A stretch of DNA of 64,000 nucleotides from IMG/VR virus record IMGVR_UViG_3300042559_001930; one strand, written 5' to 3'. The notes below the pieces were generated by a model. The model made no database searches. It worked only from the letters and a program-made list of their open reading frames with translations, and had not been told where the DNA came from. Position 1 is the stretch's first letter. Each line of letters starts with the position of its first letter. Source of the stretch: an uncultured virus (IMG/VR IMGVR_UViG_3300042559_001930) (lineage: Duplodnaviria > Heunggongvirae > Uroviricota > Caudoviricetes). The position numbers and the translations under genes were made by a program. Shown one piece after another: positions 14,011 to 64,000 of this stretch.

Positions 14011-14112
14011 CAGACAATACCCCCCACTTTCAAACCCTTCTAGGACAAATCACAAAACCAGGAATCTTTGTGATTTAACCTATATAAAGATTAAAGTAGG
14101 GGGTATTGTCTG
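14011..14112. repeat. Long nested inverted repeat (candidate origin/cruciform)
   Basis: 20-bp arms 14011-14030 / 14093-14112 (1 mismatch) enclosing 10-bp perfect arms 14047-14056 / 14067-14076. Confidence 0.75.
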
Positions 14113-20650: not shown

Positions 20651-23600
20651 TTACTTTATGTTGTTTTCTAAGAACGCAACACGTTCGGAAAGTTCTTGCA
20701 CGGCCTTGACCAGGATTGGATACGTTTTCATGGGATCAGCCTCCCAGATTTCTGGATTGTCTTTGTGAACAAGCCGTGTATATTCCCTGCAATCAAAAGT
20801 TTCTTCAACTTGATCCAGCTCCTGGGCAATAAAACCAAAGTCTTTTCTTCCTTTTCTTGACCCATCTCTAGTAGCCCAATCAAATTGAACAGGGCGAAGC
20901 GCTTGGATAAACGTTACACCATAAGGCAGGTCTTTAATATTTGTTTTATCACGCCGATCAGACAATGTAGAAATTGTTGTGTCAGCACAACGCAAGTTGA
21001 CAATATCTGCGTTTCCAAGGGTAAATTCACCCGTAACAGTTGCCGCAGAAGCCTGAGCGTTATTTCCTAAACATGTGTTGTTTACACCGGTTGTAAGTGT
21101 GTTACCCGCCAGGCTCCCAACCGCCGTATTTCCAGAAGCAATAGTGTTAGAGCCAAGAGCATCAGAGCCGATGGCAACGTTGCTAATGCCTGTTGTATTA
21201 ACATCAAGGGCCGCGTTACCAATTGCGACATTATTTGTACCAACAGTATTGGCTCCCAATGCATTGACGCCAATACCAATGTTTTGTATGCCTGTTGTAT
21301 TGGCATCAACTGCACTATTACCAAGTGCAATATTGTTGACTCCAATTGTATTGACAAGAAGTGCAGATGGACCAATGCCAATATTACTGCCACCAGTGGT
21401 CACGCCACTAAGCGCATTAGTGCCAATCGCAATATTGTTAATAGCAGTGGTAGCAGTAAATAATGCGCTCTTGCCAATTGCAATATTATCAGTACCGGAT
21501 GAATTAGTGTTTAAAGCCTCAGCGCCTATGGCAATATTATTACTTCCGGTGGTGTTCGAGTCGAGGGTTGTATTGCCTAAGGCAACATTACCACTTCCAA
21601 TAGTATTAGCAAGCAATGTATTATTGCCAAGTGCAATATTATTATTTCCCGTTGTATTAGCACCCAAGGCATTAAGGCCAATGCCAATATTGTTAATGCC
21701 AATGGTATTTGCATCAACTGCACTACTGCCAATCGCAATATTGTTGGTGCCTGTAGTATTGCCAAGTAGTGCGTTACTTCCAATACCTACGTTACCGCTA
21801 CCAATTGAGTTAGCGCCTAAAGCAGAAAATCCAATTCCAATATTAGCGGTACCTGTACTGTTTGCGTCTAAGACAGCCGTGCCGATAGCGATATTGTTAA
21901 CGCCTGTTGTATTAACAAGTAACGCATTTCTTCCAATTCCAATGTTGTCACTAGCAACTGTATTGGCGCTTAACGCATTAAATCCAATAGCAATGTTACT
22001 GGCACCGGTCGTATTAACATTTAACGAGCTGTTTCCAATGGCAACGTTAGTGTTAGCAGTGGTATTTGTTCCAAGGGCATTAGCGCCAATGGCAATATTT
22101 CCGCTACCGATAGTATTACTGGTAAGCGCATTAACGCCCACACCAATATTAAAGTTGCCTGTTGTATTGTCATCTAAAACAAAAGAGCCAATAGCAATGT
22201 TGCCACTGCCTATGGTATTAGCGAACAAACTAGTATGACCAACTGCCGTATTATCATTTGCAGTAGTACTAGTCGTTAAAACCTGGTCGCCTATTCCTAT
22301 ATTTCTAGAGCCTGTCGTATTAAAATACACCGACTCTGTACCGAGGGCAATATTGGATATTCCAGTTGTATTGTTGTTAAGAGCAAAATAGCCAATTGCT
22401 GTATTCCTGCCACTTAGCGCATAAGTTAATGCATACGAACCTATGGCAAGGTTCTTATCTACTGTAACAGAACTTGCTATAGCACCATTACCAATTGCAA
22501 GATTGCCAGCTCCCTCTGTATTGCTAGAGAGGGTATTATGACCAATGGCTATATTTTCAATACCAGTTGAATTATTGACTAACGAACTGTTTCCAATTGC
22601 AATAAGGAATGACGCCGCGTTAAAAGTTAAACTATTGTACCCAATTCCAATTACATCTGTTGTTTGTGTAATACCGCCTACTATGGCACTACATCCAATA
22701 CCAGTATTTCTAGAGCCTGTCGTAATACCGTAACCAGCACTAAGGCCAATTGCAATATTATCAGAGCCCGTAGTATTAAAGTAAAGGGCGTTTGTACCAA
22801 TAGCGGTTATACCAGCTGCTGATGTAGAACTGTAAGCTGCATTAAAACCAATTGCAGTTATAGGACCGCCTGTTGTATGGTTTTCTCCTGCAGTATGTCC
22901 AACCGCAACACTGCCCGCATCAAGTGCATATTTTAAAGCAGCGTGTCCTACTCCAACGTTATAAGCGGTGCCTGCTGCCGCCAACTCCATGGCTAGATGG
23001 CCAACTGCAACACTTTGATAAGACTCTGTTGCGCTTGCAAGGGCGCGATATCCAATAGCGACGTTACCGTCTCCGGTGGTATTTGCGCTAAGTGTTTCGT
23101 GCCCAACTGCAACATTAAAAGAGCCGGATGTACAGCCACTTAAACTACTAATACCAACACCAACACTAGAAGAGCCTGTCGTAATTGCATTTCCAGCGTT
23201 TAATCCAAAAAACACATTATTGGGATTTGTGTTTTTAAAGTTTTGACCTGTAATTGTAGTAAATGTACCGGTTGTAAAAGATGCCGTAGTGCCTTGAGTA
23301 GTGGTCCCAGTTAAAGAAGTAAATGTACCTGTAGTACCTACTACAGTTAAACCGCTGACACGAGTAGAAAATGTGCCAGTAGTAAAGTTTGCGTTTGTAC
23401 CTGTTGTTGTAATACCAGTTAAAGCAGTAAATGTGCCCGTAGTGCCAACTACGGTTAAACCACTGACGCGGGTAGAAAACGTACCTGTTGTGAAGTTTGC
23501 GTTTGTACCTGTTGTTGTGGTTCCGGTTAAAGCAGTAAATGTGCCCGTAGTGCCAACTACGGTTAAACCACTGACGCGGGTAGAAAACGTACCTGTTGTG

Positions 23601-44176: not shown

Positions 44177-45923
44177 AACTCATCTCCTTTTGTAAAGCTT
44201 CTAACGTTCGATACAGATACGGGGTTAAATCCAATCTTGGATCCGCAGCCATCGGAAGATCCGGTGATTGCGGGTGGGGCGTCTGCATCATTCCCCCCAC
44301 TAGCTTGGCAAACTGAGAGTAAGCACTCTGCAATTCGTTAACCATCCTGAACGGGAACCCAGATAACATCTCGGCCCGTTCCTCATCCGTCTTAGACGGG
44401 AAGAGGTATTTCAGTGCTTCAATGCTATCAACACCTAATTCTTGCAGATTTCGTACCACGATGGAGTTGTTGAGAATATCTTGTGTCGAATCTTCGTACA
44501 CAGGACCTAACCAGCGCCACAACATTGTGACATCCCCGTCAGGAATCAAGCCCATAACTCCAGGCGGAATCTGTTGAGCCTGAACACAAGCCATCATTAA
44601 CTGTTTAACTTTATCGTTGTGCTGCTTAAGTGCATCTTCATATGCAGCAACTTCTTCTTCAGATGAGTCTTTGGAAGGTGAAACAGGCTTCTCAAGTCCG
44701 GCTGCTTGTGCCAGGGTGTTTTTGAAAAGTTGCTCTTCTTGATAAATAATTAATTCAAGGCAACGACAAATGCCATGAGTATAAATAGCATTTGCTTTTT
44801 TCTTTGAAGTTGCAGAAACACGTCCAAACAACGACTTGTATTCAGTTGCCGTTACACCAGCAGAAATTGAAAGTTCATCAACACCGCCAAGAGCAGTACG
44901 AATCTCTTCTCGGTACTGACGTGCAAATGCATTTTGGTCACCAGTGATAGCATCTGGGACGATGTACCCAACACGGTCATTTGGCTCCAGGTTGGCAATG
45001 ACGCGTGGTACGCGGATGGTACCGTCAACTCCACGACTAATTGGATCAGACTTAAACGTCGACCGGCTTAATGCACTGGGACTATTGAAGCCAGAGTTTG
45101 CTGCAATAGATGGACGCTGAATAGTGGTATCACCTCCAGCTTCCATAAGGTCCGTCTTAGGACGTGACGAAAGCAATGTTGGGTTACCAAAGAACTGTAC
45201 GTTCTTACGCATCGTACGAACCATTTCATCGTGAATGATGATATGGTTGGCCATTGAATCAAAGTCGCCAACGCCTTCCGTAGAGAAACCTTTTGGGTTA
45301 TTAAAGATCTCAACGCAAGGAATAAAACCTAATGTATTTTTAAACGTTTTAGTTTTCCCTGGTACCGCATAGGAGGGCATGTCAAATGACATTTCACCTT
45401 CCGAATGGGTTTCTTCAATTTCGTCGGCTTTAATGGAAAGTCTAATGTAGCGCTTTGCACCCTGATCGCCTGTTACAGCCGAGCCAGTGATGCTCTTAAT
45501 GTTGATCGTGTCATTCAACCCAAAGCCCTTGCGGACTTTATAGCTGTAGATGATGACCACTTCATCTAGCTCACCATCTACGTTGTAATACGAGCGATAT
45601 TCGTGAGCGCGGAAGTAATAGAGACGGTAGTTAAATTTGGTGGGACGGATGTAAAAAAGACCCTTTCCGTCACACAAAAAGTATTCCCAAATGGAATCCA
45701 GGCGGATATCCATCTTGTTGTACTTCAGTACGCGGTCGATAAAATCTTTGCGTTGTGCACCAAAGTTATCTTGAGATGGGAAAAATTCAACCCCTTGGCG
45801 AATGCCAAAAAGTTTCATCTGCGCAATATGAGAAGCAATGATACCTGTGTCGACGCCAACGCTCCCATCTTTTTCAAGATAAGAATTAATGATTTCCTTA
45901 AGTCGACTTACAGCGTCAGCCAC
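43605..45923 (-). CDS. Portal protein with a long disordered C-terminal extension
   Basis: Size and position between TerL and scaffold; LGFIPCVEIFNNP...GVGDF motif. Confidence 0.75.
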   Translation of the reverse strand: MADAVSRLKEIINSYLEKDGSVGVDTGIIASHIAQMKLFGIRQGVEFFPSQDNFGAQRKDFIDRVLKYNKMDIRLDSIWEYFLCDGKGLFYIRPTKFNYRLYYFRAHEYRSYYNVDGELDEVVIIYSYKVRKGFGLNDTINIKSITGSAVTGDQGAKRYIRLSIKADEIEETHSEGEMSFDMPSYAVPGKTKTFKNTLGFIPCVEIFNNPKGFSTEGVGDFDSMANHIIIHDEMVRTMRKNVQFFGNPTLLSSRPKTDLMEAGGDTTIQRPSIAANSGFNSPSALSRSTFKSDPISRGVDGTIRVPRVIANLEPNDRVGYIVPDAITGDQNAFARQYREEIRTALGGVDELSISAGVTATEYKSLFGRVSATSKKKANAIYTHGICRCLELIIYQEEQLFKNTLAQAAGLEKPVSPSKDSSEEEVAAYEDALKQHNDKVKQLMMACVQAQQIPPGVMGLIPDGDVTMLWRWLGPVYEDSTQDILNNSIVVRNLQELGVDSIEALKYLFPSKTDEERAEMLSGFPFRMVNELQSAYSQFAKLVGGMMQTPHPQSPDLPMAADPRLDLTPYLYRTLEALQKEMSYAGRYRPVDPTDEPRTAVSSPEQLRDSSGSGAQQLPSGSGGVPSGDRLPPSDSSSEYQLPIRPYSVRPPIPTGGSTGGESLGIGVQQGGEPAERTSSIPVPGSTVSSDDLYPGQLRTSPKPGYLELGSPDLINQPGLIAQLFPNFVESFLSGRGGLPGSEPGKPSSDRRVRGGSSGPAKPVRPSTRRNAR

Positions 45924-57823: not shown

Positions 57824-58251
57824 GTGTAAAAACTTGGGCTAACTAGGTAAAACCATCACAAAGATTGAATATTACTTAATTTTTTGCTTCGAAATGGCCC
57901 CTTATAGGACCAAAAAGGTAAATGATTTTCCTGAGCCTTCTCCAATACTCCCTCCGAGATTGATTGTGGGAAGAAAAAAAGAAAGGTGGGGTACCTTGAA
58001 ATTTACCTAGCAATAAGCGAGGAGGATAAGAGTATATTGCGCCAAGAAATTAATGAAACAATCGTAGGTATGTTTACTTATTGTTCTTTTGAACGGAATA
58101 AGGACATTTACCTACTGTTTTATGTGTAAATCCACACATTTCGGGCGCTATTTAGGGTCAAACCCCTTGCTACTACACGGTTCAAATAGGACAGTGATCT
58201 GATTGTGATCAGATAAGACTGTTTAATTCCGATGAATTAGCTCGGGATTAC

Positions 58252-58277
58252 ACGTCAAGCTGGACGTTAAACGTAGC
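58252..58277 (+). promoter_or_regulatory. Leader pseudoknot element, family PK copy 1 (divergent)
   Basis: ACGTC-AAGCTG-GACGT-TAAAC-GTAGC. Confidence 0.45.
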
Positions 58278-58302
58278 ATCAAACCCACATCAACTCAACG
58301 CC

Positions 58303-58494
58303 ATGCGTTATCAATTCCCCAACGTAGCTCCAGTCATCTGTGGCTTTGCAGTCCTCATTGGTATCGGTACGCAAGTAACCGTACACCAATTGGACAAAGC
58401 AACAGCACAGCAATGTGCGAACCACGACTGGCCCAAGGAAGCACACGATGTCCACATGGACTGGTGTGCTGCCAACAGCTACCCAACCAACTGA
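58303..58494 (+). CDS. Small early membrane protein
   Basis: TM segment followed by QCANHDWP...WC. Confidence 0.65.
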   Translation: MRYQFPNVAPVICGFAVLIGIGTQVTVHQLDKATAQQCANHDWPKEAHDVHMDWCAANSYPTN

Positions 58495-58558
58495 GTAACA
58501 GGCGTGATGCCGAGGGATCGAATCCCTCACTCAGTATTGCCTCCAGCGGAGATAGGCA
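58490..58558 (+). ncRNA. tRNA-elbow-like element, family TE copy 1
   Basis: ACTGAGT/ACTCAGT closing stem, GGC-GTGAT-GCC, GAGGG-ATCGAAT-CCCTC, then a TGCC..GGCA hairpin. Confidence 0.6.
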
Positions 58559-58566
58559 CCGCACAC

Positions 58567-58860
58567 ATGGAGATATCCATGGACCTGACAACAGGTTGGC
58601 AGAAGCATTCCAATGTACCTGGTGGTTATCACCTGGTGTACCACGACACCTGGATTGGTGAAGTATCCATTGTCACTGGACCGAAAGGTTCAGGGCTAAT
58701 GGCAGCTAACGATCCAGGTCAAGAACCCACTTACGAAGTGTGGTTCCCAGGAATGGTGAATCCAACCGGTCACTTAACCCTTGATGAGATCAAAGGAATC
58801 ATCAAGTACATGCGTCAACACGAGGAAGAACGCATGATGTATGCCGACGAAGACAACTGA
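58567..58860 (+). CDS. Early hypothetical protein
   Basis: ATG at 58567 (or 58579) after the TE element. Confidence 0.65.
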   Translation: MEISMDLTTGWQKHSNVPGGYHLVYHDTWIGEVSIVTGPKGSGLMAANDPGQEPTYEVWFPGMVNPTGHLTLDEIKGIIKYMRQHEEERMMYADEDN

Positions 58861-58921
58861 TCCGTCTAAGCGGGAGGCAGGGTGCAAACCCCTGCCCAGT
58901 TATTGCCACAATGCCGTGGCA
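58855..58921 (+). ncRNA. tRNA-elbow-like element, family TE copy 2
   Basis: AACTG/CAGTT closing stem, CCG..CGG hairpin, GGCAGGG-TGCAAAC-CCCTGCC, then a TGCCAC..GTGGCA hairpin. Confidence 0.6.
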
Positions 58922-58936
58922 TCTACACTACACAAC

Positions 58937-59110
58937 ATGGGTATCCGCAAAGGACTAGCCAATGCACTCATCTCAACAGCAGCAATGCTGGAGAGTGACA
59001 AATCTAAGGAGTATGTCAGCACCAAGCTGAATGAATACCGTATACGTGCAGCAGCACTGCTGATGCCTAACGATATGGCATTCGTCATTACTCCCAAGAC
59101 TGAACTCTGA
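58937..59110 (+). CDS. Early hypothetical protein
   Basis: ATG after a C/A-rich leader. Confidence 0.6.
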   Translation: MGIRKGLANALISTAAMLESDKSKEYVSTKLNEYRIRAAALLMPNDMAFVITPKTEL

Positions 59111-59160
59111 CTTCTGCACTAAGGGCTTACGGGCCTTTACTGCAGGACTCAACATCCTGT
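59108..59160 (+). promoter_or_regulatory. Bistable UNCG hairpin element, family SW copy 1
   Basis: TGAC-TTCTGCA..AAGGGCT-TACG-GGCCTTT..TGCAGGA-CTCA..TCCTGT. Confidence 0.6.
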
Positions 59161-59184
59161 CATCAACACTACCTCAATTCAACA

Positions 59185-59457
59185 GTGACAACACCTGCAC
59201 TAGTCTACAAACCATCCGCCGAACAACAGTACCGCGTCACATGGTATGGCGGCGAATCAACCCAGTTTCACTTTGAGAAGCTGTGGAATACATTCGACCC
59301 AGACACCGATGCCGAATGGCAAGAGTGGCTAGACCGTGACGTACGTACACTTGGCGGTGGTGTACCAACAAGTATGAAGGAGATGCTCATGGAAATGGAG
59401 GACTACTATCATTACTCCATTGACATGGAACTAGAGCGCAAGCTTCAACACATGTGA
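59185..59457 (+). CDS. Early hypothetical protein
   Basis: GTG start after a C/A-rich leader. Confidence 0.65.
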   Translation: MTTPALVYKPSAEQQYRVTWYGGESTQFHFEKLWNTFDPDTDAEWQEWLDRDVRTLGGGVPTSMKEMLMEMEDYYHYSIDMELERKLQHM

Positions 59458-59492
59458 TCCTTCTCAACACACTCAACTCAACTCAACTGATC

Positions 59493-59693
59493 ATGAAAGA
59501 CAACTACCTCTCTAACGCTGTGCTGGCCATTGTTATGGGCGTAGGAGCAGGCATGCTCTTATCCGTAGGAGCACAGAAGTTACTCAACAACTATCACGTC
59601 AAGCATTGCCCAGCGAAAGCAGGGCATCAACTGATATACATGCATAGCTTTCTAGGCGATGCATACTATTGCCTGGATAAGCGTACACTCTGA
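59493..59693 (+). CDS. Small early membrane protein
   Basis: TM segment plus a Cys pair. Confidence 0.65.
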   Translation: MKDNYLSNAVLAIVMGVGAGMLLSVGAQKLLNNYHVKHCPAKAGHQLIYMHSFLGDAYYCLDKRTL

Positions 59694-59743
59694 CGTTTGC
59701 ACTAAGGGCCTTCGGGCCCTTTCTGCAGACCTCATCGTCTGCA
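59691..59743 (+). promoter_or_regulatory. Bistable UNCG hairpin element, family SW copy 2
   Basis: TGAC-GTTTGCA..AAGGGCC-TTCG-GGCCCTT..TGCAGAC-CTCA..GTCTGCA. Confidence 0.6.
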
Positions 59744-59768
59744 CACACTCAACCTAATTACAGACTGA

Positions 59769-59966
59769 ATGAAACACACGGTCCGATTATCACCAGGGCG
59801 ATTCGTCCACCTAGATTCTTACCATGTGTCTCATGAGACTCGCTTTAGTAAGATCTGCGTGGTAGCCCTATCATTTATCATGTCCGCAATCACAGTATCT
59901 GCTGTGGTCGGCATTGATATCACCAACCCAACTCCTACTCAACACCATGACAACACTCAGCGCTAA
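59769..59966 (+). CDS. Small early membrane protein
   Basis: One TM segment. Confidence 0.55.
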   Translation: MKHTVRLSPGRFVHLDSYHVSHETRFSKICVVALSFIMSAITVSAVVGIDITNPTPTQHHDNTQR

Positions 59967-60288
59967 CACCAAACTTATCGAGGATCGCATTCAACAACTC
60001 TGCGAGACTCTCCAAGATAAGTTCTACAAACAGTACAACAACCCCGTAGCTTTCGAAGTTAAGCGCGGGGTTAAGTACTACAAGATCATCCATGTCTCTA
60101 GTCCTGGTACCAAGTATGAAGGCAGATCAGTCCATGCATTTGTCGCAAGACAGACAGGGACTGTGTATAAGCCTGCATCATGGAAGGCACCAGCGGAACA
60201 TGCACGGTACCAACTACTAGATGACCAATCATTTGAAACCTGCCTACACAATTGTGACTGGGCGGGTTCATACCTTTATATGAGGTAA
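59947..60288 (+). CDS. Conserved cyanophage-type hypothetical protein
   Basis: KYYKI...SVHAFV...TG.VYKPASWKAPA..ARY...DWAGSYLY. Confidence 0.75.
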   Translation: MTTLSANTKLIEDRIQQLCETLQDKFYKQYNNPVAFEVKRGVKYYKIIHVSSPGTKYEGRSVHAFVARQTGTVYKPASWKAPAEHARYQLLDDQSFETCLHNCDWAGSYLYMR

Positions 60289-60399
60289 GTATAGGGGTCA
60301 CCCCCTGACTCCCACCTGAACAGCCAGCACCAAAGTAATGGCTGTTTAGTTATTAAGATTTTTGATAAACAACGGTTATTAAGATTCCAAGTATTAGAT

Positions 60400-60427
60400 G
60401 GACCTGAGTATGTCCTTAAACTACTCA
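60400..60427 (+). promoter_or_regulatory. Leader pseudoknot element, family PK copy 2
   Basis: GGAC-CTGAGTAT-GTCC-TTAAAC-TACTCA. Confidence 0.65.
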
Positions 60428-60449
60428 CCATCCACTCCACTTGACTCCA

Positions 60450-60824
60450 ATGAAATCACGCATCTCCGTCCTTAAAGAAGACCAGATCTGGGAACTGCGT
60501 TGCAAAGGTTATCGCTACGATCTGATCGCTAGCATTGTCAACTGCAGTCCCATATCCATGACTAAGGTCCTCCGCAGGGTGAGGCAACGTCCTCCCCTCA
60601 AGGAAGACCCAATCAAACGTGGACGCTACCGTGGCTTCTTAAGTGATGCCCAGGTAAATGACATTCGTAACCGTGCTAAGTACAATGAATCCATTGGGTT
60701 TATTGCCAGGGCTTACGACATGACGCCAGCGGCCATCTATGCAATCGTAACGAACAAGACCTATAAGGAACCTTGTCGTGATGATGCATTCATCCCCAAC
60801 TTTACCAATAGACTCATGCGTTAG
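60450..60824 (+). CDS. Tandem-HTH DNA-binding protein
   Basis: IWELRCKGYRYDLIASIVNCS and LSDAQVNDIR...IARAYDMTPAAIYAIV. Confidence 0.7.
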   Translation: MKSRISVLKEDQIWELRCKGYRYDLIASIVNCSPISMTKVLRRVRQRPPLKEDPIKRGRYRGFLSDAQVNDIRNRAKYNESIGFIARAYDMTPAAIYAIVTNKTYKEPCRDDAFIPNFTNRLMR

Positions 60825-60842
60825 TACATAAGTACTACGTAT

Positions 60843-60870
60843 GGTCCTGAGTATGACCTTAAACTACTCA
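60843..60870 (+). promoter_or_regulatory. Leader pseudoknot element, family PK copy 3
   Basis: GGTC-CTGAGTAT-GACC-TTAAAC-TACTCA. Confidence 0.65.
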
Positions 60871-60892
60871 CCGTTCCAACTCAATTCAAACC

Positions 60893-61099
60893 ATGAGAGA
60901 CCTTGCATTCATTGATGAGCAACGTAATGCAGACTTGCTTGATGCCATGGCAGACATTGCCTATGAGCAGGAGCAAGCCATGCGTGAGTCCAATCAATCT
61001 GATTGGGATGGCATTGACGAGATCTCTGTAGAGGAACGTTATGCCTGCGATCATTACAATGAAAGGTTTGCTTACCCATCCATTTACCACGGTGACTGA
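60893..61099 (+). CDS. Acidic early protein
   Basis: ATG after the PK element and a C/A-rich leader. Confidence 0.65.
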   Translation: MRDLAFIDEQRNADLLDAMADIAYEQEQAMRESNQSDWDGIDEISVEERYACDHYNERFAYPSIYHGD

Positions 61100-61101
61100 C
61101 C

Positions 61102-61560
61102 ATGACTAAAGCAACTCAACGTACTCAAGTGTGGGATGAGGATCCAGTGATCCTCTTCATCACACTCATTTCAATCTCAATCACACTCATCGGAGATCTC
61201 ATCTCATGTCTCTTCAACCTGAACAACTGCTCATCGCAGACGCACTCGGCTACGAACCCTTCGACCAAGAAGAAGGTGAGCAGCAGTTCCAAGCAGAGAC
61301 AGACTTCCAGGACGCACCCAAAGGCGCCATCGCCTGCACTGGTAACGTCTACAGAACCAAGCGAGGAGTCCTCAGGTGCTACTGGATCCCAGCCGGTGGC
61401 AACTACTCAGCCCAGGACAAGGAGGATCTCGAAGGATGGTACGACATCCCAAGCAACGAAGACATCGAGACGTGGACGTTCGACAGTTGCTGTCCTACCC
61501 CAGCAGGAGATGAAGTCGAACCAGACCACCCAGATTCCTGGCTTAGGATTCTCGGCTTGA
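61102..61560 (+). CDS. TM plus Ser/Thr/Lys-rich disordered protein (overlaps the next gene)
   Basis: Starts 2 nt after the upstream stop. Confidence 0.45.
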   Translation: MTKATQRTQVWDEDPVILFITLISISITLIGDLISCLFNLNNCSSQTHSATNPSTKKKVSSSSKQRQTSRTHPKAPSPALVTSTEPSEESSGATGSQPVATTQPRTRRISKDGTTSQATKTSRRGRSTVAVLPQQEMKSNQTTQIPGLGFSA

Positions 61561-61616
61561 TCCAACCTATCTCACATAACACTAGCGTTATGATGACATT
61601 CGCTATTCGCGAATAG
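61206..61616 (+). CDS. Acidic phage protein
   Basis: TPAGDEVEPDHPDSWLRILGLI motif. Confidence 0.65.
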   Translation: MSLQPEQLLIADALGYEPFDQEEGEQQFQAETDFQDAPKGAIACTGNVYRTKRGVLRCYWIPAGGNYSAQDKEDLEGWYDIPSNEDIETWTFDSCCPTPAGDEVEPDHPDSWLRILGLIQPISHNTSVMMTFAIRE

Positions 61617-61776
61617 AGAATATGATTTCAACCATGTGCACTACACTCCTGTGCCTGGCTCAATACTTTGGGTCGGGCACAACATATACACAGTCATACA
61701 ATGCAGTTGCATTCAAAGTCCAAGATACTTTTTACTTCTGTACCAAGGCATCTGGACTATATAACTGCGTAACTAA

Positions 61777-62208
61777 TCAAGGTCGATACCACTGAGGATT
61801 CGACTGTTGATAATTGTATATAGTCTCTTCTCTTAGCTGTTGCGCAGGTGAGAGAGGAGACATCACATCATAAGTATCCCCGCCAGGCCCAAGGATTGCA
61901 TTACTTTGTTGCATCACTTGAGGCTTGGCACCAAACCTAAATCTTGCTTCGATTGACGGATCGTTTACTCCGACATTCAAGCCAAAGTTATTACCCATTA
62001 CACCAAATTGTCCAGTCATTGGATTCAAGTTGACTGATCCAGTATCATCTTTGAATTCCATTGACCCACGATTAAATAATGAGCCAAATACATTGCCTAA
62101 CTGCTGCACATCCGCAGGTGCAGACGGGTTATTAAACTGCGTTGACAACAACGTATCTTTTAACGCAGGGCCCCAAGCACCTGCTAAGCGTGTACCAAAG
62201 TTAGGCAT
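61777..62208 (-). CDS. Hypothetical protein inverted within the early region
   Basis: Clean 143-aa ORF, Gly/Asn/Pro-rich. Confidence 0.6.
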   Translation of the reverse strand: MPNFGTRLAGAWGPALKDTLLSTQFNNPSAPADVQQLGNVFGSLFNRGSMEFKDDTGSVNLNPMTGQFGVMGNNFGLNVGVNDPSIEARFRFGAKPQVMQQSNAILGPGGDTYDVMSPLSPAQQLREETIYNYQQSNPQWYRP

Positions 62209-62358
62209 CAATCTAAAGTTGTTTTTACAATAATAAGACAGGGGTATTGCCAGATAACTACTGGCCTACCCCCCACACCCCCACTAGAAGTACCAGAGGC
62301 ACACTTTAATCTATAAGAGTTACCTCTGTACTGCACACCATTCACTCACTTACAAACC

Positions 62359-62808
62359 ATGACTAAGCACTACTCCTTCACAGAGACAGACATCACCTTC
62401 ATCCATGATGCTCTCTGCTCACTAGCAGAAGTACTCACTGCAGATGATGTGGTACACCAGCATAAAGACTTGGTTATTGCCAGGCTTGCTGAGGTAACTG
62501 ACATCATTGATTCTCAGATCAATGCTCCGTTTAAACCTACATCATTCCTCAATGAATACTACAAGCTTGCTGAAGTTCTCGAAGAACTGAAAGCTATCTC
62601 TCAACGTGAGAGCAAGCGTCACGAAGTGGATCAACATCTCACTCCCTCCATGCTTGCCATGGTGGATGATGAAATTATCCCCATGCTTGAGAACGAGATG
62701 GACTACGACCCATCAGATGAAGACCTTGGCTATGGCGGTGAGCCGCCTATGACAGCAGACGAAATGCACACAGCTGCATGGCGTCAGCACCAGGAGCTTC
62801 ACAGCTAA
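62359..62808 (+). CDS. Acidic early protein
   Basis: C/A-rich leader; GEPPMTADEMH..AW. Confidence 0.7.
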   Translation: MTKHYSFTETDITFIHDALCSLAEVLTADDVVHQHKDLVIARLAEVTDIIDSQINAPFKPTSFLNEYYKLAEVLEELKAISQRESKRHEVDQHLTPSMLAMVDDEIIPMLENEMDYDPSDEDLGYGGEPPMTADEMHTAAWRQHQELHS

Positions 62809-62913
62809 CAGCCCTACCGCAAGGTTAAGGAAACATTAAGACCATTGGTCATGGCTTGACTGCCCTGGTAGACTTGCCATGACCACACTCAACTCACACT
62901 ACGTACCAATCAA

Positions 62914-63117
62914 ATGTCTGACAGCTTGCGCATCCCAGACTCAATTGATCTTCAACGACTCCAAGCTATGCAGCTTGTAGCCAAGATGAAAGAATCAGCT
63001 GACAAACATGGTATTGGTTTCATCGGGGGCTTTGTTGCCCCCGATGGACAAAAGTTCATCATGACAAATATGGATGATGATGACACTCAAGCACTCCTAC
63101 CTGACAACCTGAAATGA
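62914..63117 (+). CDS. Early hypothetical protein
   Basis: Operon member. Confidence 0.65.
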   Translation: MSDSLRIPDSIDLQRLQAMQLVAKMKESADKHGIGFIGGFVAPDGQKFIMTNMDDDDTQALLPDNLK

Positions 63118-63413
63118 ACACGACTCACAAATTGATGATCGACGGAATCATTGATACCTTCAACTTTGAAAAAGTTCATGTTGCCATGACAGTACTTGAC
63201 TGGCAATGGGCATCAAGAGAAGGTAGGGGTTATGCAGTACCAACAATTGCAGAACTCAAAGCAAAGGCCTATTACTTACTACAAGAATCCATTACAGAAA
63301 CATGTGTTTCATCTGGTGGATTTGAAGCTAAGTATCAGCCTGCAGACAATAGCGATTCGGAGTATTTCGAATTGAAATTCATTCTTTGCCACGAGGATTC
63401 CTACGATGACTGA
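63114..63413 (+). CDS. Phage hypothetical protein
   Basis: FNFEKVH..M..LDWQW...VPT...SSGGF. Confidence 0.7.
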   Translation: MNTTHKLMIDGIIDTFNFEKVHVAMTVLDWQWASREGRGYAVPTIAELKAKAYYLLQESITETCVSSGGFEAKYQPADNSDSEYFELKFILCHEDSYDD

Positions 63414-63603
63414 CAAGTCACCTATCAACTTTGACAAGACAATTGCTGGATTCAATGTCACTGAACATGGAATCAAATCGTTTACTAAGTCGATTAAACT
63501 TGGGCCATTCCGGGTAACACTTAACGCTAGAGAATCTGGTGTACGTGGATCTATCTCATTACCTGGCACAGGCTTGAGTAAACGCAACATCAAGTTGTTC
63601 TGA
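63406..63603 (+). CDS. DUF4236-like protein
   Basis: KSIKLGPFRVTLN...SLPGTGLS. Confidence 0.65.
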   Translation: MTDKSPINFDKTIAGFNVTEHGIKSFTKSIKLGPFRVTLNARESGVRGSISLPGTGLSKRNIKLF

Positions 63604-63608
63604 TCCAA

Positions 63609-63636
63609 GGACCTGGGATGTCCTTAAACTCATCCA
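63609..63636 (+). promoter_or_regulatory. Leader pseudoknot element, family PK copy 4
   Basis: GGAC-CTGGGAT-GTCC-TTAAAC-TCATCCA. Confidence 0.55.
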
Positions 63637-63656
63637 CTCCACCTCAACATAATCTC

Positions 63657-63848
63657 ATGAACAGCACTGAACTACACGCCATGATTGCCCGCATGGACAG
63701 CTATGGCGGATCATTCGTCTCATCTATTGCACAAGCATTGCGCTTTGCTGATCCAACGAATCGGCAGCGTTTGCTTGATGCATTCCCTGACCTCGTCCAA
63801 CAGTATGGACCTGAAGGCCGGTTTGCCAAAGCCAAGCAACTCACATAG
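63657..63848 (+). CDS. Small phage protein
   Basis: YGGSFV..IA.A...AD..N..RL..AFP. Confidence 0.7.
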   Translation: MNSTELHAMIARMDSYGGSFVSSIAQALRFADPTNRQRLLDAFPDLVQQYGPEGRFAKAKQLT

Positions 63849-63857
63849 GTGTAACTC

Positions 63858-64000
63858 ATGATTGTTTTGTTAATCGAAGACACATTCATTGATGGCAACG
63901 ATGTCACAGTTACAGCAGTGGTTGACGACATGCGTCTCATCCATCGGTCAACTTACCTTGACCCTGAAGAATATGCTCCTGCGTTATGCAGGGCTAGCTT
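63858..64000 (+). CDS. Hypothetical protein (3'-truncated)
   Basis: Open from ATG 63858 to the window end. Confidence 0.55.
   Translation, partial: MIVLLIEDTFIDGNDVTVTAVVDDMRLIHRSTYLDPEEYAPALCRAS

Follow-up and report, generated by a model that had tools for sequence, protein, structure and literature searches.

Coremin is a compact RNA motif in which a short stem with a YG(NN)AD loop is joined by a conserved linker to a second hairpin (PMC10520033, PMC10321173, PMC6546385), and it stalls both Xrn1 and scanning ribosomes (PMC10520033). [quoted passage not shown] In the literature searched, xrRNAs are described solely for eukaryotic viruses. Here we report a related element from double-stranded DNA (dsDNA) phages and prophages, four copies of which lie in a 64,000-nucleotide (nt) stretch of an uncultured Caudoviricetes virus (IMG/VR record IMGVR_UViG_3300042559_001930), called the window below. 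The general plan is that of a 26-28 nt H-type RNA pseudoknot with a 4-base-pair (bp) stem, a loop, a UAAAC linker and a second stem. A first-pass annotation of the same DNA had proposed four + strand copies that each end 20-25 nt before an ATG, and all of them were found where it had placed them:

58252-58277, + strand: pseudoknot copy 1, divergent subclass, ACGTC-AAGCTG-GACGT-TAAAC-G-TAGC, with a 5-bp stem 1, the 6-nt loop AAGCTG and a 3-4 bp stem 2; ATG at 58303 (25 nt)
60400-60427, + strand: pseudoknot copy 2, main class, GGAC-C-TGAGTA-T-GTCC-TTAAAC-TACTCA, with stem 1 at 60400-60403/60412-60415, stem 2 at 60405-60410/60422-60427 and the linker at 60416-60421; ATG at 60450 (22 nt)
60843-60870, + strand: pseudoknot copy 3, main class, GGTC...GACC, with the loop and partner of copy 2; ATG at 60893 (22 nt)
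63609-63636, + strand: pseudoknot copy 4, GGAC-C-TGGGA-T-GTCC-TTAAAC-TCATCCA, with a 7-nt loop and a 2-nt bulge in stem 2; ATG at 63657 (20 nt)

All four copies are real. When the region 57900-64000 was scanned for a stem, TAAAC and loop-partner pairing, four matches scored at least 8, whereas 200 second-order Markov resamples of the same region averaged 0.025 matches and never gave more than 1, a significance that is somewhat overstated given that the scanner was designed after the copies were known. Apart from this run, the counts reported here come from pattern searches and from alignments read by eye. As had been noticed at first reading, copy 3 differs from copy 2 by a compensatory A-U/U-A swap in stem 1 (GGAC/GTCC to GGTC/GACC). 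The proposed joint change of loop and partner in copy 4 was borne out with the refinement that stem 2 pairs around the 2-nt bulge, a register backed by homologous loci (L166, L183, L221, L168 and L217) with the loops TGAGA, TGGAA or TGGGA and partners that change accordingly. For copy 1 the ACGTC/GACGT stem stood, but the GCTG/TAGC pairing shrank to a 3-bp invariant core with a variable fourth pair, and in the alignment of its subclass stem 2 changes on one side only; it is the least supported of the four. Over the window as a whole, a loose pattern gave 48 matches against 48.3 expected and no further copy. Scanner matches at 23437 and 23545 (score 8) lie within a 108-nt repeat that reads as coding on the opposite strand, and a match at 45320 has mismatched stems; all three were judged by eye to be chance. 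None of the Rfam 15 covariance models matched the motif, either in the window or in 32 locus scans.

Further copies allowed the fold to be examined by covariation. A strict pattern found 27 viral loci, two looser patterns at least 125 viral loci each (80 listed for each), a pattern for the stem 1 and linker of copy 1 at least 120 loci, and one pattern run on prokaryote genomes 91 loci; the scans share many loci, so these counts are not independent events. In 82 distinct rows for which the search pattern left stem-1 positions 1-3 free, 95.1% of 820 cells paired compared with 78.1% after shuffling, and 136 cells had changed on both sides compared with 50.8 (0 of 500 shuffles reached this). With stem 2 left free, 17 cells had changed on both sides compared with 3.8 (again 0 of 500 shuffles). 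The stem-2 rows were all 45 matches of the second looser pattern with an 8-nt loop plus the window copy (28 distinct), and excluded 35 matches with other loop lengths, several of them unpaired and chance-like. The shuffle control behind both comparisons ignores the relatedness of rows. The prokaryote-genome set gave agreeing covariation, and a control with slid partners paired in just 20-46% of cases. One stem-2 pair is U-G in 14 instances and C-A in 1, which suggests pairing of + strand RNA rather than of double-stranded DNA. With both stems covarying and G-U pairs tolerated on the + strand only, the claim of an RNA pseudoknot is upheld, and covariation argues firmly for an H-type RNA fold in the main class.

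The predicted fold shares much with coremin. The required first stem of coremin has 3-5 bp with a 5'-pyrimidine/3'-purine closing pair (PMC6546385), and the closing pair is C-G in all four window copies. Copies 2-4, but not copy 1, combine this C-G pair with a pyrimidine as first loop base, both of which are required for stalling (PMC6546385, PMC10520033), and also share with coremin an A at the second-last loop position. The coremin linker AAACUA(C) is exact in copies 2 and 3, which hold the nine linker letters UUAAACUAC of the published minimal xrRNA-C (PMC10520033); it is reduced to UAAACU in copy 4 and to UAAAC in copy 1. Loops of 6-8 nt are tolerated in both motifs, and the step from the Xrn1-resistant 7-nt loop CGAGUAA (PMC10520033) to the window loop CUGAGUAU takes one inserted U and a change of the final base. 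Coremin motifs likewise sit just past stop codons (PMC10321173, PMC10520033). There are also differences. The window loops, CUGAGUAU (twice), CUGGGAU and AAGCUG, have neither the YG(NN)AD consensus, of which the Y...AD letters fit in copies 2-4 only, nor the G that xrRNA-WCC carries as loop base 1, and all four copies are followed by A/C-rich spacers with no stable hairpin directly behind the linker. Stem 2 is a full 5-6 bp of Watson-Crick pairs, unlike in xrRNA-C. The form xrRNA-WCC has the same stem 1 and linker and a canonical loop-to-linker pseudoknot (PMC10321173), but its loop is 4 nt long with a required G at position 1 and its stem 2 has 3 bp (PMC10321173), whereas the phage motif has C as loop base 1 (copies 2-4), a loop of 6-8 nt and a longer stem 2. 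Since a second hairpin is missing from the window copies, as is a G at loop position 2, we class the phage motif as a predicted variant of coremin and not as a member.

Three further known elements were also compared. PeSL cassettes of T4-like phages are likewise repeated intergenic elements that act as recombination points in variable early regions, but they are composites of terminator and promoter (PMC4122927), and the phage motif has no linked promoter and so falls outside that family. The T2/T4 gene 32 operator, too, is a compact H-type pseudoknot of phages and lies 5' of a start region that has no structure, but it is tied to one gene and bound by the product of that gene (PMC3014915), whereas the motif has no fixed gene. 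ToxI repeats resemble the motif in their H-type core of about 25 nt, their 4-bp stem 1 and the A-minor contacts made by the second loop, but they are arrayed in tandem ahead of toxN, contain a U:U:G triplet and carry sites of cleavage by the toxin (PMC8860590); none of these features occurs in the window, and membership is not indicated.

The carriers are diverse, with hundreds of phages that are not related to one another. They include cultured phages of Staphylococcus, Lactobacillus, Roseobacter, Mycobacterium, Arthrobacter, Bacillus and Nostoc and one crAss-like phage, while degenerate copies with one stem-1 mismatch are present in E. coli phages. Many of the prokaryote-genome loci belong to Saccharibacteria, and some Weissella genome copies precede integrase-like genes. 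Among 76 aligned loci of the copy-1 pattern (omitting L470, L502, L503 and L505, suspected chance matches in coding regions), 23 have the copy-1 loop RAGCTG and 18 a YGNNAD loop. All but one of these 18 (17/18) are on contigs below 5.6 kb, possibly those of RNA viruses. On a 35-kb contig, L526 (301-410) carries the canonical coremin six-base loop and linker, with a tRNA-Lys 15 nt downstream. Four tandem copies follow a stop codon directly in L047 (473-580, on a 4.2-kb contig), where a Pfam search of the upstream protein gave no match, and tandem copies also occur in L456. By eye, a stretch 3' of the motif complements the motif core in a Saccharibacteria group (L279, L289, L295, L317, L319 and L323), where an alternative fold or switch is possible, and in L307 and L355 the motif is flanked by CRISPR-repeat-like repeats, possibly as a spacer. 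Literature searches returned no description of the motif in phages, and a search with the motif letters returned only unrelated papers among the matches listed; two catalogues, of 224 motifs (PMC5737381) and 10,006 viral candidates (PMC10690425), may contain it in parts other than those cited here. Taken together, the element is real and widespread, and its sequence features mark it as a new variant of the coremin-type pseudoknot, with a function that is predicted.

The region 57900-64000 resembles Synechococcus phage S-EIVl (73% identity over 22% of the region) and holds a series of small + strand genes, mostly of unknown function; we take the part with the four copies to be the early region of a freshwater cyanophage. 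S-EIVl also has four copies, about 5-7 nt past stop codons (one upstream frame is unannotated). In the window, copy 1 precedes the first gene of the early cluster and has no gene of annotated size upstream, copy 2 lies 111 nt past the stop of a DUF7717 gene and behind three predicted hairpins, copy 3 lies 18 nt past the stop of a helix-turn-helix (HTH) gene, and copy 4 lies 5 nt past the stop of the gene at 63406-63603. The surrounding features are as follows:

58278-58302, + strand: A/C-rich spacer without a Shine-Dalgarno motif, from copy 1 to its ATG
60428-60449, 60871-60892 and 63637-63656, + strand: comparable A/C-rich spacers after copies 2, 3 and 4
60450-60824, + strand: putative HTH gene (weak PHROG 517 match, E 8e-4), flanked by copies 2 and 3
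63406-63603, + strand: DUF4236-like gene upstream of copy 4, the anchor for the comparison of orthologous spacers
63657-63848, + strand: gene downstream of copy 4, some orthologues of which have no preceding pseudoknot

Copies 2 and 3 are 94% identical over 32 nt. A relative, L157, lacks the HTH gene and has a single pseudoknot at that place, an arrangement that fits recombination between copies. In 40 spacers behind orthologues of the gene at 63406-63603 (near-duplicates L393 and L394 left out), 16 hold the pseudoknot, 14 another hairpin family and 10 neither, and the gap from stop to pseudoknot is 5-11 nt in all 16. The replacing family reads CUGGG-CAU, hairpin, UGUAAGU-CCCAG, has no Rfam match, and was seen at 795-860 in L397, L402, L407, L419 and others and at about 14025-14070 and 14715-14780 in L028. 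Before orthologues of the gene at 63657 (15, leaving out near-duplicates L438 and L439), nine have the pseudoknot and four a bare 10-nt A/C-rich gap. The A/C-rich spacer is thus separable from the pseudoknot, being found behind other elements or none. These comparisons suggest that the pseudoknot is a spacer module that can be absent or exchanged, and that the A/C-rich stretch is a start region in its own right.

Other structured elements occur in the same cluster. Three-way folds bearing a T-loop sit on stop codons at 58490-58560 and 58855-58925, each with a small hairpin behind it, and S-EIVl carries similar folds. Related long hairpins with internal loops lie at 59108-59150 and 59691-59735 (81% identical over 53 nt; folding z -4.5 and -6.0), and in S-EIVl a pseudoknot occupies the spacer corresponding to 59691. 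The three predicted hairpins upstream of copy 2 and the HTH gene span 60286-60399 (z -3.7), with a 12-nt direct repeat at about 60350 and 60376; this stretch may be a small RNA or an operator. A lone 144-residue open reading frame without a family match lies on the - strand at 61777-62211, within the + strand cluster.

The first-pass annotation had described the copies as lying in 5' leaders. Their sense intergenic placement holds, but the term is too narrow. In 20 annotated phage regions, chosen by us at about one per group and not at random, 12 copies start within 25 nt of an upstream same-strand stop, only four end within 35 nt of an annotated start, and two adjoin a tRNA. In phage Molivia the order is the stop of the single-stranded DNA-binding protein gene, 6 nt, the motif, about 1 nt and tRNA-Gly; in NMeng1 a tRNA lies 2 nt behind the motif, and in S-H35 no gene is annotated within 400 nt downstream. 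A tRNA at 4-5 nt behind the motif was found in 2 of 60 viral loci (L074 and L075) and in 0 of 60 prokaryote-genome loci. Across 369 loci, a U5 run directly behind the motif occurs in 37, compared with 5 on the mirror side and 1 at +30-34, and a start spaced from AGGA falls 3-25 nt behind the motif in 53, compared with 16 at +60-82. Upstream of the motif, the -10 box shows no enrichment (7 versus 2 and 5), and neither a promoter nor an operator acting as DNA is supported. Type III hammerheads begin at the 3' end of the motif in L286 (twice) and L301, and L292 has a twister-like match, in a ribozyme scan of 20 loci chosen by eye in which just one match reaches the Rfam cut-off; no hammerhead was found upstream of the motif in the 369 loci. 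The motif also precedes a GP20-b RNA in L311 (1242-1300), and in several temperate phages (L376, L382 and L385) it lies before head-scaffold genes, often with a U-run. Frameshifting or read-through into the next gene was considered and set aside: checked by hand, copy 3 has an in-motif stop in the downstream frame, the frame through copy 4 is open but without a slippery heptamer, and the gaps in S-EIVl vary in frame.

Of the three roles guessed at first reading, an exoribonuclease block is the best supported, through the likeness to coremin. We hypothesize, with confidence that falls a little short of even, that the pseudoknots are 5'-facing roadblocks that keep RNase J or RNase E away from the RNA downstream, and such roadblocks would probably set the boundaries of stable phage messages. 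Adenosines of the linker would bind in the stem-1 minor groove while stem 2 would lock the loop, so that RNase J, degrading 5' to 3', or RNase E, coming from a cut in the upstream cistron, would stall at the pseudoknot. The RNA behind it would persist as a separate stable piece, here the next cistron with its A/C-rich start region and in other phages a tRNA or leader. The 5-6 bp stem 2 may replace the second hairpin of coremin, and near-identical copies may double, as a side effect, as joints for gene gain and loss by recombination. The position of copy 1, without an upstream gene, suits shielding of what follows. In vitro, the bacterial enzyme RNase J1 is stopped by a flaviviral xrRNA (PMC5760640), and RNase J is present in cyanobacteria (PMC12464536). 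Several observations weigh against such a block. Loop position 2 is U or A in the window, and tested coremin loops without G there failed (PMC10520033); xrRNA-C and xrRNA-WCC strictly need the second hairpin against Xrn1 (PMC10520033, PMC6546385, PMC10321173); and ordinary frameshift pseudoknots do not stop Xrn1 (PMC10321173). A U5 run directly follows the motif in 37 of the 369 loci, and where a ribozyme lies directly behind it (L286, L301 and L292), no more than a few bases would be sheltered by a 5' block. Degenerate copies occur in phages of E. coli, a host without RNase J; for RNase E, a pseudoknot reportedly blocks its scanning. More tentatively still, we propose that phages of many phyla use a 27-nt, protein-free xrRNA with a coremin fold, the one with which RNA viruses of plants and fungi resist Xrn1, and that it would stall RNase J or RNase E and cut polycistrons into stable pieces.

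The block could also face the other way. As a 3'-end cap or terminator-like element, the pseudoknot would keep 3'-to-5' exonucleases from degrading the upstream message once a cut had been made immediately behind the fold, by RNase P at a tRNA, by a ribozyme or by RNase E in the spacer, and where a U-run follows, stem 2 would be the terminator stem. We regard this as unlikely but far from negligible. It would account for the bias of annotated copies toward upstream stops (12 of 20) over starts (4 of 20), the tRNAs in Molivia, NMeng1, L074 and L075, the gene-free 400 nt in S-H35, the U-run enrichment and the ribozymes. However, coremin xrRNAs also sit just past stops, a tRNA or ribozyme stem could act as the second hairpin, both sets of 20 loci were hand-picked rather than random, and the coremin-specific letters are left unexplained. 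No window copy is followed by a U-run, so the stem and U-run of an intrinsic terminator are not present, and none has the tRNA or ribozyme neighbours; copy 1 again has no upstream gene to protect. Also improbable in our estimate is a roadblock to ribosomes, in which the pseudoknot would sit at the entry tunnel of the ribosome terminating upstream and stop sliding and re-initiation, leaving the next gene uncoupled and starting afresh on its A/C-rich spacer. Coremin stalls scanning ribosomes (PMC10520033), and xrRNA-WCC stimulates -1 frameshifting (30%) without the second hairpin (PMC10321173), which is the state of the window copies; the 5-11 nt gap past the stop in the 16 orthologous spacers, and the 10-nt gap of orthologues without the pseudoknot, which is suited to coupling, are consistent with this role. 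Nevertheless, neither copy 1 nor copy 2 has a stop nearby, no reading frame follows the copies that precede tRNAs, the findings on ribosomes were made in eukaryotic lysates and in an E. coli frameshift screen, and the short gap may merely reflect the ribosome footprint.

The remaining roles fit worse. A translation enhancer, another of the early guesses, would recruit the 30S subunit via ribosomal protein S1, which binds H-type pseudoknots (PMC7708055, PMC3858243), and would suit both the AGGA-spaced starts (53 of 369 loci compared with 16) and the four window copies, each of which is followed at 20-25 nt by an ATG that lacks a Shine-Dalgarno motif. We consider it very unlikely: orthologues of the gene at 63657 do without the pseudoknot while keeping a bare 10-nt A/C-rich spacer (4 of 15), only 4 of the 20 annotated copies are near a start, and others precede tRNAs. 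Least probable of all would be a binding site or decoy for a protein or ligand, such as an operator of the T4 gene 32 type or a ToxI-like antitoxin mimic, or a site acting at the DNA level (PMC3014915, PMC8860590, PMC12283969). Stem 2 letters are more conserved than pairing requires, ToxI cores are H-type pseudoknots of about 25 nt with a 4-bp stem 1 and A-minor contacts (PMC8860590), and copies 2 and 3 mark an indel. Against these points, no neighbouring gene is fixed across hosts of many phyla; the copies are single, without a U:U:G triplet and without a toxN family match among 21 nearby proteins; and a DNA site is at odds with both the unenriched -10 box (7 versus 2 and 5) and the single-stranded pairing indicated by U-G (14) versus C-A (1). 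The roles need not be mutually exclusive across phages.

A natural, covarying and fully paired form in hundreds of phage loci would offer a structural model for the coremin fold, which has no crystal structure in the cited sections of the 2023 coremin papers (PMC10520033, PMC10321173). If the 5'-facing roadblock is true, the motif would be a native bacterial example of an exoribonuclease-resistant RNA, working without a second hairpin, and would mark one extreme of a continuum that links it to coremin and spans DNA and RNA viruses. It would show that phages tune RNA stability gene by gene within one long transcript, and bacterial expression would gain a portable stabiliser or insulator of 27 nt.

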